A stretch of 64,000 nucleotides of DNA. It comes from Octopus vulgaris. Lineage: Eukaryota. Each line of letters starts with the position of its first letter. Position 1 is the first letter of the stretch. The notes below the pieces were generated by a model that saw only the letters and a program-made list of their open reading frames with translations, had not been told where the DNA came from and ran no database searches. Below are positions 1,090 to 10,264 of the stretch, piece by piece. The position numbers and the translations under genes are program-made. The stretch lies in assembly GCA_951406725.2 (NCBI GenBank), contig OX597814.1:96286001-96350000 (forward strand), given 5' to 3'.

Positions 1090-1112
1090 AATATATATAT
1101 ATATATATATAT

Positions 1113-1325
1113 ACTTAATCCAAATATGAACAAAGAGAAAACGCAACAACGCGAGGACGTGGCTCAAGTAGAGTGTTATTGGACGCCCAGGAAAGGAAAG
1201 AAAGAAGGAGGATTTAACGTTTCGAGCGGAGCTCTTCGTCAGAAACATAGAAAAAGGAAAGGCCCAAGGAAGGGAAGACGGAGAAAGAAAATCGCCAATG
1301 ATACACAAGCGGTCACATATTTAAA
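1113..1325 (-). mobile_element. Penelope-like pseudo-LTR fragment carrying a hammerhead ribozyme
   Basis: Flanked by (TA)n; organisation resembles the 2851-3000 pLTR; HHR core at 1213-1245. Confidence 0.6.
1213..1245 (-). ncRNA. minimal type I hammerhead ribozyme
   Basis: Minus strand ttt-CTGACGA-a-gagc-tcc-gctc-GAAA-cgtt-aaa; canonical core but weak stem I. Confidence 0.65.
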
Positions 1326-1581
1326 TACATACATATATATATATATATATATATATATATATATATATATATAACAATGATAAATATCAAAGTGAGTTAT
1401 ATACAGTAGCGGTAACACATCGTGACGTATTTTTGCCATTTCAATATGGCTAACCCCTAAGGGTAGATGCTACTGTAGTTTTTAGCCCCAGGAGGACACA
1501 CTCCTCCAGCTGGCCATAGACACACTATCTGTGTCCTGTCAGTATTTGCAAAGGGAAGTCATCCTTCCCGTCTTCAACTTA

Positions 1582-1638
1582 TGATACACACGGACTCGAG
1601 TTTCGAGGTATTGACCTCTCGTCAGCGTGTGACAATCA
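1582..1638 (-). ncRNA. type I hammerhead ribozyme, copy 1
   Basis: Reverse complement of the 1876-1932 motif. Confidence 0.9.
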
Positions 1639-1875
1639 TAGTTGTCGCCGAGAATTAGATTTCCTTCACAAATACTTATACTTTTTCCAGCGTCCACTGT
1701 CGCTGATATTGAAAAAGTGAAATCAAACAATGATAAATATCAAAGTGAGTTATATACAGTAGCGGTAACACATCGTGACGTATTTTTGCCATTTCACTTT
1801 TTCAATATCAGCGACAGTGGACGCTGGAAAAAGTATAAGTATTTGTGAAGGAAATCTAATTCTCGGCGACAACTA

Positions 1876-1932
1876 TGATTGTCACACGCTGACGAGAGGT
1901 CAATACCTCGAAACTCGAGTCCGTGTGTATCA
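1876..1932 (+). ncRNA. type I hammerhead ribozyme, copy 2
   Basis: cacacg-CTGACGA-gaggt-caat-acctc-GAAA-ctcgag-TC|cgtgtg; stems I, II and III all pair; predicted GUC cleavage after 1921. Confidence 0.92.
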
Positions 1933-7400: not shown

Positions 7401-7578
7401 TCCTCCCATTCCTTCTCCCCCTCCTCTCTCTCCCCCTCCTCTCCTCTTCCCCCTCTCATCCCCCTCTTCTTCCCCTCCCCTTCTCCCCCCTCTTCCCCCC
7501 CTCTTCTCCTCACTACACCACACGACTTTACACATCACATCATATATGATGTGCCATGCTAATACATACACCAACTAA
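4482..7578 (+). pseudogene. Penelope-like reverse transcriptase / GIY-YIG endonuclease polyprotein, frameshifted
   Basis: Motifs LSAAERSVLGRGLQFIP, IKPADKGGAVVV, PKIHK..PGRPIVS, MDIQSLYT, GVAMGTRMGPNYANLF, RYIDDI, Cys linker CSRPRCRTC, IIYCISC..LYIGQTGRRLADRFAEH and GLN; frameshifts near 5100-5200 and 5930. Confidence 0.93.
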
Positions 7579-7872
7579 TACATACTAATACATACTAATA
7601 CATACACCAACCCTATACATACACACGTCCAGACCCCTCATACGCACTTATACTCTCTCATACACACACACACACACTTATACATACTAATACGTACTAA
7701 TACATACTAATACATACTAATACATACACCAACCCCATACATACGCACGTCCAGACCAATCCTACGCACTAATACTCTCTCATACACACACACACACACA
7801 CGCACACCCTTATACATACTAATACATACACCAACCCTATACATACACACGTCCAGACCCCTCCTACGCACT
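7560..7872 (+). repeat. tandem repeats in PLE 3' UTR (CATACTAATA units and about 3 longer imperfect units)
   Basis: Recurrent CATACACCAACCC..CACGTCCAGACC blocks. Confidence 0.7.
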
Positions 7873-8055
7873 ATTAGCTGGTCCTTCAACCCTATTATCA
7901 ACCCTATTATCAACCCTATTATCTCCCCTTATTTCGCTCTCGCGTCTCATGTTTGATCTTTGACCTCTGGCCGAAATCAGATCGCCATGTTGATTCGTTA
8001 GCTACTGCACGCATATTTTTCTCTCCTTCTTTCTGTGTTTTTTTCTCTCTGTGTA

Positions 8056-8093
8056 TCTTTCTGTTGAAGAGCGTATGCTCGAAACGTTAAAGA
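8056..8093 (+). ncRNA. minimal hammerhead-like motif in 3' pLTR, CUGUUGA core
   Basis: tcttt-CTGTTGA-a-gagc-gtat-gctc-GAAA-cgtt-aaaga. Confidence 0.65.
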
Positions 8094-10264
8094 CTTGTTT
8101 TATTTATATTTCCTGAGCGCCATACTAATACAATTGTTCGTTTGTTTTCCACCTGCCTTCGTCTTTTGTCTATTTTCATAAAGCTTCCCGTTATATATAT
8201 ATATATATATATATATATATATATATATATATATATATAAATATATGTATATAAACGTATGTATGTATGCCGTAGCCATCAAGAACCGTTGACATCCTGC
8301 ATTTCAAGGTTTTGGGGTTATAGTCTACAAGGTGATACTTTGTAGTATATTCAATGCAACGCGTTCGTTTAAGAATTAAAGTGAGAAAAAGAGTATTCAG
8401 TATGTAGTAAAACTGATGGCTCAAAATATAGCGCCAATGTAAAAATCGGGCAGTTTAATCTTTTTCCATTGACTTCCATCCATACTAACACTGAAGCTCA
8501 ACATCTGTCCACTACTAAACCATGAAGTCCGGGGAACAAGTAACAATTCTATTCGTCATCTTGATTTTCAACCCTGAGATCATATAATCAGTGACTTATA
8601 TTTCGTTAAGTCGTTGTAAACTTCTATTTTCCTCTGCAGAACGAACGAAATGAGCAAGTCTTATGAACTGATACAATGGCCAGAAGAAACTTGTAGAATT
8701 GTTCTTCGATTCATTCGCGAAAAAGAATTCTGTATTTTAATCATGTGGTCTATATGTACGGTGAAGCTAATTGTATGCTCATTTGCAGTGCACACGCAAA
8801 TATATTTACAACCTATCCACAGACGCTATCTCATTACTTTAGTTAATTAATATGCATCACCATTGCATATACTGGTATGAAGACGAGTAAAAGCAGAGCC
8901 TGTTATTTATCGTATTTATCACGAGTCACTCACTGCAAGCTACAATTTATTTCTCTGTAGAAGAAAAGTAAATTATTCTGAGGAGTTGGTAATGACTAAG
9001 CAAAACTAAAAGAGTTATTTTACCATTTCATTCAATATAATGAACAATAGTTTTACCACTGGGCTATCTACAGCAAAAGGTTTAATTACTGTTTATTGAA
9101 TGTATGCATACGCACAAACCTAAATACAAAGACATACACACATGCATATATAAATTTATTTAAAATGGCTGCTCCTATCTAAGATATGTTTTTGCTGTTT
9201 TCCTCTAGCACTTCTTTCCAATAATCGCAAATAAATCAGATTTAATCGAATCGTTTGTGTCATATATAAATATCAATGTAACGCAAGATGTTTTTTTCGA
9301 TTATTTTCCTCATGTTTTGAAGCCATAAACTTTAGTGGCTGTTAAAGTACGCGTCGTTGCAATTCTTCAGCTACTAAAAATATATTTCCACATCGAAATA
9401 AATTATTTTCAATCGTTTACAATGTTTGGAATTCGTTAAATTATTTTCCTATTCTTCATATATATTTTCATTTGAGCATTAGTTTTTCTCTTACATTACA
9501 ATTAAAGCTTTCTGATTTTTTCTCTCGTAGAATATAATCTAAAAGCTCTGTCTCGTAGATTCGCAAGTTTATCTTTATTACATTTCTATAGTTTAAATTA
9601 ATATCCCAACTAATCAGTATTCACATTAAAATTTTCCCACTCAAAATAGTAGTAGTAGTATTCGTAGTAGTAGTAGTAGTAGTAGTAGTAGTAATCGTCG
9701 TCGTCGTAGTAGTAGTAACAGTAGTTGTAGTAGTAGTGGTTTCTAATTGAGGCACGTGACAAGAAATTGTGAAGGGAGCGATTTAGTTGATACTGTCGAC
9801 CCCAGAGGCCCTAAGCGTTTAAAAGATTTTGGTACCTTCATATATATGTAATTAGGAAGCGTTAATTATGTTGTTAGCTGTCAGTATCATGAAAATGGAA
9901 AGGAGAAATAGAAAAAACAAAACAGGAACCAACTTACAAAGTTGCAAGGTTACTACGTGTGTTACACCGGACGCTGAGCGAACTATTGACTCTCACTGCA
10001 CTCACTCCTCAGTGAATGACTGAATGGGACAGCCGACATGACAAAAACAAAAAACGATCACGTGAACCTCTGTGGATCATGAGGCTTATCATGTGAACCT
10101 CTGTGGACCAGATTTGGATTTTGTTGTATTTCCAAGGTTAATGTAAATAATTAACCTCTGTTAATTATGCATATTTGGACTGATAATAACATTACAGTTT
10201 TACTTATCACTGCTTAGCGCCCCACTCTGTAATTTGCTTACGATGAACCGCCGCACAGCACTAC

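Follow-up and report, generated by a model that had tools for sequence, protein, structure and literature searches.

Insertion ends of a 353-nt hammerhead retrozyme in the Octopus vulgaris genome point to mobilisation by a Penelope-like element

In a 64-kb stretch of Octopus vulgaris DNA (hereafter the window), a 353-nt non-coding tandem unit with hammerhead ribozymes (HHRs) is inserted as two head-to-head arms. The anatomy of this insertion suggests that the unit, a retrozyme, was mobilised in the manner of a Penelope-like element (PLE), a reading to which we assign a probability of about 0.75. It is also probable that the retrozyme is copied in trans by the RT-endonuclease of a PLE that targets (TA)n in this genome. 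PLE mobilisation had been put forward in the initial annotation, and the junctions now support it with evidence that had not been used there. They support the long-proposed PLE helper link, and the adjacent broken element PLE-A is only a candidate for that helper.

Ribozymes and mobile elements at the locus

The seven HHR motifs claimed for the locus were all recovered by a descriptor scan of both strands, and all are of type I with a palindromic helix III (Table 1). This class was found 0 times in 30 dinucleotide shuffles, and a looser class 0.1 times per shuffle. Two further matches, of nine in total, lie at 12704 (-) and 59606 (+); their stem II is long and weak, and they were taken as chance. 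The three retrozyme HHRs score 32.2 bits against Rfam RF00163 (E 2e-5). This is short of the gathering score (34), so that Rfam gave no match at gathering level, and the four PLE HHRs had no Rfam match. Because the motifs at 2977, 3728 and 8061 read CUGUYGA instead of the canonical CUGANGA (U at canonical A6), self-cleavage by these PLE ribozymes appears doubtful.

The retrozyme has a tandem period of 353 nt (1.9 copies), within the 150-450 bp range of metazoan non-LTR retrozymes. Those of mussel measure 350-390 nt and those of axolotl 331 and 353 nt (Cervera and de la Pena 2020, PMC7229834). Like them, it has a self-paired tandem unit with one canonical type I HHR (6-bp helix I) and no long ORF (no stop-to-stop frame of at least 70 aa inside the unit), a high copy number and a position beside HHR-bearing PLEs. 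On these sequence features the unit is a metazoan non-LTR retrozyme, with self-cleavage and a circular RNA predicted. The predicted fold includes a four-way junction resembling a cloverleaf, which was rejected as a tRNA (ARAGORN, 0 genes; no Rfam tRNA match). Of 22 family variants, 18 were compatible with the fold where 14.7 would be expected, a difference that is not significant (p 0.058). Matches to miRNAs were attributed to the inversion and the TA tracts.

At least three HHR-bearing PLE families lie within 7 kb. The two pLTRs of PLE-A differ at 2 positions in 157 nt. Its ORF has two frameshifts (between 4946 and 5201 and at about 5930) and lacks about 60 codons at 6597, so that this copy is without the intact frame of an active autonomous helper. 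The protein has an RT followed by a C-terminal GIY-YIG domain (Pfam RVT_1, E 3e-5; GIY-YIG, E 0.004; both below curated cut-offs) and homologues to E 1e-147, 85 of 120 of which have the linker plus GIY-YIG pattern. Its named relatives come from corals, snails, sharks and turtles. The search for a close relative in the host found none, with a best local identity of 69%. By domain layout, PLE-A is putatively of the Neptune type, as had been claimed: it resembles Neptune-type PLEs in domain order, DKG motif, CX4CX2C linker, GIY-YIG Cys pair and HHR-bearing pLTRs, and differs from them in its broken ORF and in the three local HHR cores with U at A6. A CX2-5CxxC linker between RT and endonuclease is common to Neptune and Nematis. 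The earlier count of four element types is right if PLE-A and PLE-B, which are 78-88% identical, count separately; PLE-C is 76% identical to PLE-B over 67 nt.

Table 1. Features of the locus and one distant relative of the retrozyme (window coordinates).
Feature	Position	Strand	Details
(TA)n tract	1091..1113	.	At PLE-C 3' end
PLE-C	1114..1320	-	5'-truncated 3' end of a third PLE family; 5' boundary approximate; minimal HHR, core CUG 1242, predicted cleavage 1216; end 102 nt after cleavage
(TA)n tract	1333..1373	.	At retrozyme long end
Retrozyme inverted arm	1373..1796	-	424 nt, 1.2 units; one HHR (1587-1631), core 1625, predicted cleavage 1593; 3' end at unit position 2141 (long end)
46-nt extension	1373..1418	-	Equals 2096-2141; only at long end; candidate PLE tail
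Arm junction	1791..1796	.	6-nt microhomology, head-to-head; no TA
Retrozyme direct arm	1791..2448	+	658 nt, 1.86 units of 353 nt, 100% identical; HHRs 1883-1927 (core 1889, predicted cleavage 1921) and 2236-2280 (core 2242, predicted cleavage 2274); 3' end at unit position 2095 (short end)
Predicted self-cleaved monomer	1922..2274	+	353 nt; -122 kcal/mol, z -7.7, strongly self-paired
Predicted four-way junction (cloverleaf)	2037..2112	+	
(TA)n tract	2449..2476	.	At retrozyme short end
Helitron-like non-autonomous element (presumed)	2476..2839 (about)	+	Hairpin plus CTAG end
PLE-B	2850..3380	-	5'-truncated 3' UTR and pLTR; TA both sides; minimal HHR, core 2977, predicted cleavage 2950; end 100 nt after cleavage
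(TA)n/(TATG)n tract	3381..3479	.	
Two pieces of about 110 nt	3480..3708	.	Each ending on TA on the minus strand
PLE-A upstream pLTR	3709..3865	+	Minimal HHR, core 3728, predicted cleavage 3755
PLE-A ORF	4482..7188	+	Broken; DKG 5597, YIDD 6328, CX4CX2C linker 6802-6828, GIY-YIG with two Cys 6919-6963
PLE-A downstream pLTR	8042..8191	+	Minimal HHR, core 8061, predicted cleavage 8088; end 103 nt after cleavage
(TA)n tract	8192..8239	.	At PLE-A 3' end
84-nt insert	31380..31463	-	Diverged copy of the cloverleaf region, 81% over 57 nt; outside the locus

The element 3' ends were said to abut (TA)n, and all five do (1114, 1373, 2448, 2850 and 8191), each being followed by at least 5 TA units; they represent at most 4 independent insertions. 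As background, 304 of the 128000 strand-positions of the window (0.24%) precede at least 5 TA units. The tract at 2840-2849 is down to 5 units, being split by an element that we take to be Helitron-like from its hairpin and CTAG end, and whose 3' end is common to 15488 and 31314. The pieces at 3480-3708 have no match elsewhere in the window. We rejected an assignment of 3381-3479 to the interior of PLE-B, since the corresponding place in PLE-A holds a CT-rich tract. The hotspot is a serial nesting of elements inside TA tracts, in which each insertion would leave TA on both sides as a target for the next. Such a pile is ordinary in itself, and since a non-retro Helitron-like guest occupies the same tract, co-location names no helper.

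Anatomy of the retrozyme insertion

Three retrozyme copies had been reported at this locus. The three HHR units are present, but they belong to one insertion with an inverted arm and not to three insertions. The arms differ by one mismatch, at 1465, and their 3' ends lie 46 nt apart within the 353-nt unit, the short end 174 nt and the long end 220 nt past HHR cleavage. Both ends are inside (TA)n, where any TSD is unreadable, and the homology between the long end and its flanking TA is limited to 1 nt. The tracts may have arisen or grown after insertion; no empty site came to light. The 5' start of the direct arm (unit position 2144-2150) is 2-9 nt from the 3' end of the inverted arm (2140-2141). 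Chance would give this contiguity in about 5% of cases, and an offset of 30-55 nt between arm ends in about 7%.

The (TA)n flanks claimed for the retrozyme are also found at other copies. The family occurs in 20 sequencing runs from 11 studies, under nine organism labels and none on record as RNA, and 1679-3608 contigs per large run match it with many variants and flanks, which indicates a dispersed multicopy family. Recurrence of the ends was predicted before the run contigs were inspected. Among the rows listed, the short end recurs at 2092-2095, followed by (TA)n, in three of four runs: (TA)n-flanked loose ends at 2092 or 2095 account for 24 + 13 of 264 partly aligned contigs in X2, 26 of 288 contigs in X20 and 12 of 210 in X19, runs with three organism labels from two studies. 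Flank agreement at this end is 0.5-0.6, i.e. many different flanks. The rows listed for the fourth run, X8, which is only guessed to be RNA, include no TA-type row and place other ends at 2082, 2083 and 2164. Head-to-tail unit joints are present in X2, X20 and X8, and the X8 joint fits tandem DNA equally. The long end (2141) is not among the loose-end rows listed (24 of 354), so the candidate tail rests on one insertion. The alignment reference was one monomer ending at the HHR cleavage site, against which ends at 1922/2274 and contigs spanning the inversion could not appear. Contig depth drops over 2090-2165; depth cannot rank parts of the unit and was given no weight. An exact-pattern search of metagenome, viral and prokaryote contigs, which need not include the host, returned 0 retrozyme matches and was likewise given no weight.

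A fixed, (TA)n-flanked end at 2092-2095, within the unit, suggests internal initiation, a hallmark of PLEs. In the predicted fold, the short end sits in or just after the loop of the cloverleaf's third hairpin (2090-2093). A tail plus an inverted, 5'-truncated copy is PLE architecture, and the retrozyme resembles EN+ PLE insertions in its head-to-head inverted copy, candidate one-end tail, microhomology junction and AT-rich target (PMC8557442, PMC3846280). It differs from them in its cargo, a non-coding tandem RNA, and in a candidate tail of 46 nt against the 30-40 nt reported. In PLE insertion, two internal RT starts delimit the tail, nicks are made in both strands and the RNA used is mainly uncleaved (PMC11167929). 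Initiation inside a stem-loop and read-through of HHR sites, as in the anole element PAc in vitro, would apply here too, PAc being of the Poseidon clade (PMC11167929). The 17 readable ends of related PLEs, read by eye, fall into two classes (10 short, 7 long), and the head-to-head insertions L008 and L031 have one end of each, with tails of 50 and 46 nt. None of these 17 ends abuts (TA)n; the TA preference ascribed to the PLE is thus seen in the flanks at this locus and is not general among its relatives.

The geometry and the junction microhomology also fit twin priming by a LINE-type RT (PMC2837659), with (TA)n as a tail on a fixed RNA 3' end, the inversion primed at an arbitrary internal site and the 46-nt offset due to chance. 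Twin priming on one RNA predicts the 2-9-nt contiguity of the arms, and only the short end is seen recurring among the rows listed. However, the fixed end falls within the unit, in a hairpin loop that contains neither a T-run nor poly(A) nor an HHR cut from which an RNA 3' end could arise, and the second end abuts TA as well. A LINE-type tail had been named beforehand as the sign of another helper, and neither retrozyme end has a poly(A) tail. SINE copies of the window, examined as a control, abut (TA)5 in 0 of 12 matches, several of them partial. The retrozyme as a LINE-mobilised, SINE-like element is opposed by the lack of poly(A) and of a tRNA head, features with which a (TA)n tail is still compatible. 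We regard LINE-type mobilisation as quite improbable.

It is more improbable still that the inversion arose by DNA rearrangement after insertion, or as an artefact of assembly, with TA-tract fragility alone behind the clustering. TA tracts are common (11 of at least 6 units in the window), and no run contig spans the inversion, given the monomer-only reference. Against this, the junction is no fold-back palindrome but is offset and joined by microhomology. The arms also differ in the unit position at which they end and in their outer flanks, and the end position recurs in independent runs.

Relation to the local Penelope-like elements

A helper/parasite pair, said to be visible at this locus, is not borne out: PLE-A is broken, no similarity to the retrozyme above background was found outside the HHR core and the Helitron-like guest shares the tract. 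With at least three HHR-bearing PLE families in 7 kb, the helper could belong to any of these or to a family not seen here. As a special case of PLE mobilisation, the Neptune-like family of PLE-A and PLE-B is a possible helper, although we lean against it. It has the same TA flanks as the retrozyme and young pLTRs, its relatives have a tail length equal to the retrozyme offset, and TA-targeting Naiads have long been inactive in cephalopods, which leaves fewer candidates (PMC8557442). Its Cys linker is, in a passage of PMC8557442 citing Arkhipova 2006, a hypothesised source of microsatellite bias. On the other side stand the broken PLE-A copy, the rival candidate PLE-C, the different distances from HHR cleavage to element end (100-103 nt in the PLEs, 174/220 nt in the retrozyme) and a rotifer study that found no cross-mobilisation between PLE types (PMC3846280). 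A paper on killifish Neptune and one on giant squid held nothing further on insertion targets.

Outside the HHR core, the comparison of the retrozyme with the 3' ends of PLE-A, PLE-B and PLE-C gave nothing above background (p 0.24-0.75). For one nominal match, to a 5' UTR (p 0.018), 100 of 1250 window tiles scored at least as well. Two post hoc observations, a short CCTG motif that precedes all four ends by 71-79 nt and 18 matching positions of 24 in the PLE-A 5' UTR, were set aside as background level. The local PLE ends have no cloverleaf-like fold (z +1.2 to -0.75). This lack of common sequence or fold with the local pLTR ends speaks against PLE mobilisation, as does the diverged copy at 31380-31463, which ends at the equivalent of 2092-2093 but not on TA; on its own, its fold is not significant (z -0.98).

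It seems unlikely that the 353-nt unit instead descends from an autonomous PLE outside the window, as a derivative shortened by deletion or as an amplified pLTR, an origin proposed for Xenopus families, and so moves via inherited cis signals and is no unrelated parasite. A fixed internal end is expected of a pLTR, the 31380-31463 relative has a different 5' part, and in Xenopus 24 of 57 retrozyme families match TEs, for the most part PLE termini (10.64898/2026.07.22.740005). The retrozyme HHR, however, is canonical where those of the local PLEs are minimal, the whole unit is self-paired, head-to-tail joints recur in three runs and, within the window, no homology to the termini of the three PLE families was found.

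Proposed mechanism and significance

Under PLE mobilisation, a tandem source locus would give a multimeric RNA with one HHR per unit. The PLE endonuclease would nick both strands of a TA tract, as the flanks and PMC11167929 suggest. RT would start at a fixed site within the unit, 171-174 nt beyond HHR cleavage in a hairpin loop, where the end recurs, and the other DNA end would prime at a second site 46 nt further on, seen once. Both cDNAs would cross the HHR sites uncleaved and then be joined head-to-head by the 6-nt microhomology seen at the junction. Because the direct arm stops 2-9 nt from the start of the inverted arm, both may derive from one uncleaved RNA of about 3.07 units in this one event, and not from a monomeric circle.

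The idea of a PLE helper is already in print (2020; 2026 preprint), where we found no junction evidence. Li, Clavereau and Pollet (2026, 10.64898/2026.07.22.740005) likewise conclude that PLE machinery mobilises retrozymes, from co-occurrence in 32 of 35 species and pLTR homology in Xenopus; their main text uses 'tail' and 'junction' 0 times. Our evidence is instead junction anatomy, with no homology found to local pLTRs. For the retrozymes of PMC7229834 circular RNA was shown, whereas here the insertion ends are resolved (a fixed internal 3' end on (TA)n, an inverted arm and the 46-nt offset), and the geometry of one insertion leans to a linear multimer template.

A more specific scheme, which we consider speculative and unlikely, is that a retrozyme without PLE ancestry recruits a PLE RT dimer via its tRNA-like four-way junction; one subunit would start in the third loop and the other, 46 nt on, in a unit further upstream in that uncleaved multimer, and the first would stop on meeting the second. 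If so, the circular RNA would be a by-product and not the transposition intermediate, and the cloverleaf, about 80 nt long, would act as a portable module for PLE initiation.

The helper enzyme of animal retrozymes has been an open question since their description. Published support for PLEs consists of shared ribozymes, co-occurrence and terminal homology. Insertion ends record the enzyme directly. With its fixed start site (2092-2095), candidate second site (2141), (TA)n target and compact 353-nt substrate, this family makes both the identity of the helper and the choice between circle and linear multimer as template directly testable.

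Anatomy of the retrozyme insertion

The retrozyme, a tandem array of a 353-nt unit bearing hammerhead ribozyme (HHR) motifs, is a single insertion event with two arms. Six nucleotides are common to the 5′ ends of the arms, which meet without intervening TA; a single base distinguishes their sequences. Numbered along the unit, the plus arm has its 3′ end at 2095 (the short end) and the minus arm at 2141 (the long end), an offset of 46 nt. A four-way junction is predicted with good support in the unit, and the short end falls in its third loop. Because three HHR cleavage sites lie within the two arms taken together, a cleaved linear monomer cannot have served as template unless the reverse transcriptase switched templates. 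The plus-arm 5′ start (unit 2144–2150) lies 2–9 nt from the minus-arm 3′ end, a proximity with a chance of about 5%. Homology at the ends is only 1–2 nt, but TATATAA occurs within the candidate tail.

We read this structure as the product of target-primed reverse transcription of the Penelope-like element (PLE) type, with internal initiation (probability roughly 0.7). PLE insertions carry an inverted 5′-truncated copy and, at one end, a tail of 30–40 bp (PMC8557442, PMC3846280). When assayed in vitro, the PLE protein of the anole introduces nicks into both strands of AT-rich DNA and initiates at two internal positions that bound the tail, mainly on uncleaved RNA (PMC11167929). In the retrozyme, the constant end inside the unit and its TA flank are observed, and the remainder of the scheme (enzyme, second start, form of the RNA) is inferred. 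A PLE protein would start reverse transcription inside the retrozyme unit, primed at the target, and two subunits would share one multimer of ~3.07 units, the first halting on meeting the second; the 2–9-nt spacing fits such an arrangement. Twin priming on a single RNA would leave the same gap (PMC2837659), and under LINE-type mobilisation the second priming site could be arbitrary, the 46-nt offset being tail-like by chance in ~7% of cases. We regard a LINE-type route as unlikely.

Features of the insertion cluster
Feature	Position	Strand	Remarks
PLE-C end	1114–1320	minus	HHR-bearing PLE copy
Retrozyme	1373–2448		
Retrozyme minus arm	1796 to 1373	minus	424 nt
Retrozyme plus arm	1791 to 2448	plus	658 nt
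Helitron-like element	about 2476–2839		
PLE-B end	2850–3380	minus	HHR-bearing PLE copy
PLE-A	3709–8191		HHR-bearing PLE copy; follows 229 bases without element assignment; then a further TA tract

Target sites and locus architecture

The initial annotation placed the retrozyme and PLE 3′ ends against (TA)n, and this was borne out: at least five TA units directly follow 5/5 element 3′ ends, against a background of 304 of 128,000 strand-positions in the window. As controls in the window, SINE matches lie on at least five TA units in 0/12 cases (several are partial) and Helitron-like ends in 1/3. Between 1091 and 3479, inserts follow one another with nothing but TA tracts in between, and the locus reads as serial insertion into such tracts, every event adding fresh target. 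With shared targets, co-location is expected regardless of any help among the elements.

The interval 3480–3708 contains two pieces of ~110 nt, each ending on TA (minus strand), which are possibly the ends of further PLE families; the second lies head-to-head with the terminal repeat (pLTR) of PLE-A. A 14-bp tandem duplication occupies 3600–3629. The element next to the PLE-B end (about 2476–2839), which we take to be Helitron-like from its hairpin and CTAG end, belongs to a non-autonomous family (also 15488–15886, 16183–16397 and 31304–31710) with a common 3′ end and differing 5′ halves. Inside the last copy, an 84-nt insert (31380–31463, minus strand) holds a diverged version of the retrozyme cloverleaf region, which retains two hairpins and stops at the short-end unit position, away from TA. 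The insert lies between 12-bp direct repeats (31368–31379 and 31464–31475), perhaps not a target-site duplication because the sister element at 15488–15886 repeats the same motif. A SINE at 320–553, apparently similar to an octopus family, has about 11 other matches and is flanked on both sides by a ~17-bp direct repeat including (TA)4. A 243-bp tandem dimer (58243–58733, 97% identical) is built from a SINE part; no HHR was found in it.

All seven HHR motifs of the initial annotation are among nine matches to a descriptor scan of both strands of the window; the other two are weak and lie outside the region. Helix III is palindromic in all seven, a class seen 0 times in 30 dinucleotide shuffles. 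In Rfam, all three motifs of the retrozyme hit Hammerhead_1 (E 2e-5), slightly below the gathering score. Three of the four PLE motifs, those of PLE-A and PLE-B (2977(−), 3728 and 8061), have the core CUGUYGA, with U in both subfamilies at the canonical A6 position. All four PLE motifs belong to the minimal HHR type, with a short helix I and an extra nucleotide before helix II (PMC4209133).

Recurrence of the ends and comparator PLEs

Searches of public sequencing runs listed 24 runs (20 with the retrozyme, 11 studies, nine organism labels); 92–100% of sampled words from 1791–2448 are present in runs under the nine labels, which may stand for related species or for mixed samples. Contigs of four of these runs, none flagged as a possible source, were aligned to the monomer 1922–2274, with the prediction fixed beforehand that ends would lie at ~2095 and ~2141 and run into TA. 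Other copies repeat the short end together with its TA flank: among the 24 of 354 loose-end rows listed, four show a (TA)n consensus, in each case at 2092 or 2095 (partly aligned contigs: run X2, 24 + 13 of 264; X20, 26 of 288; X19, 12 of 210; X2 and X19 come from the same study). By eye, the majority of the remaining listed rows represent a diverged retrozyme subfamily. The fourth run, X8, has no TA row among those listed and shows three other ends (2082, 2083 and 2164; 4 contigs). The long end is absent among the listed rows; the aligned stretch stops at the HHR cleavage site, so ends there could not appear. That the inverted structure at this locus is an artefact we consider highly unlikely.

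A profile of PLE-A relatives recovered 80 metagenome loci, 14 with a strict HHR. One comparator HHR family is represented by 19 rows at 15 loci; after those of L067 and L080 (another subfamily, no readable end) were dropped, the 17 remaining ends comprise, by eye, 10 short and seven long. Two loci, L008 (2187–4561) and L031 (200–2285), are clear head-to-head PLE insertions and useful reference cases, each with one short and one long end, arms only 92–93% alike and flanking direct repeats of ~13–16 bp (by eye). Their tails of 50 and 46 nt (the latter up to 50 allowing for microhomology) agree in length with the 46-nt retrozyme offset. None of the 17 ends lies on (TA)n, in hosts that are TA-poor (a tract in 6/80 loci), and TA preference is therefore not a clade-wide property. 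The HHR cleavage-to-end distance is 100–103 nt in the three window PLE families (ends at 1114, 2850 and 8191; PLE-C is quite diverged) and about 68 and 118 nt in the comparator family. A distant PLE (L048, 1444–1580; 27% identity, different HHR) has a TA tract 95 nt past cleavage.

The proposed helper and the wider family

A Neptune-type PLE preferring TA repeats had been proposed as helper of the 353-nt RNA, with the pair visible at the locus. This is partly supported, by a reason other than co-location: the insertion ends point to PLE-type mobilisation. Proximity fails as an argument, and a helper role for PLE-A is conjectural at most. Set against intact homologues, PLE-A carries two frameshifts and, after 6597, a deletion of about 60 codons. 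Sequencing errors in C-rich runs might account for the frameshifts but not for the deletion. Outside the HHR, the retrozyme aligns to the PLE-A, PLE-B and PLE-C ends no better than shuffles do (p 0.24–0.75), and 100 of 1250 window tiles do as well as the single nominal match. The PLE ends are not predicted to fold like the retrozyme four-way junction. TATATAT occurs at the internal pLTR/5′ UTR junction of PLE-A (3859–3865), a stretch through which the RNA of this element could anneal to a TA primer. Given the broken copy and the lack of shared sequence, the PLE-A/B family is a tentative candidate within the PLE-type reading; descent of the retrozyme from an unseen PLE, which overlaps the other readings, we hold to be doubtful.

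Among the metazoan non-LTR retrozymes described in PMC7229834, the element is unexceptional. The Discussion of that paper already puts PLEs forward as the strong candidate for mobilising them; a 2026 preprint (10.64898/2026.07.22.740005) argues the link from co-occurrence and pLTR homology. In the main texts covered, mostly outside subscription journals, we found no junction-level evidence for an HHR retrozyme, though retrozyme flanks may appear in the supplements of these two sources. What is new here is mechanistic evidence, from insertion ends, on a known kind of element.
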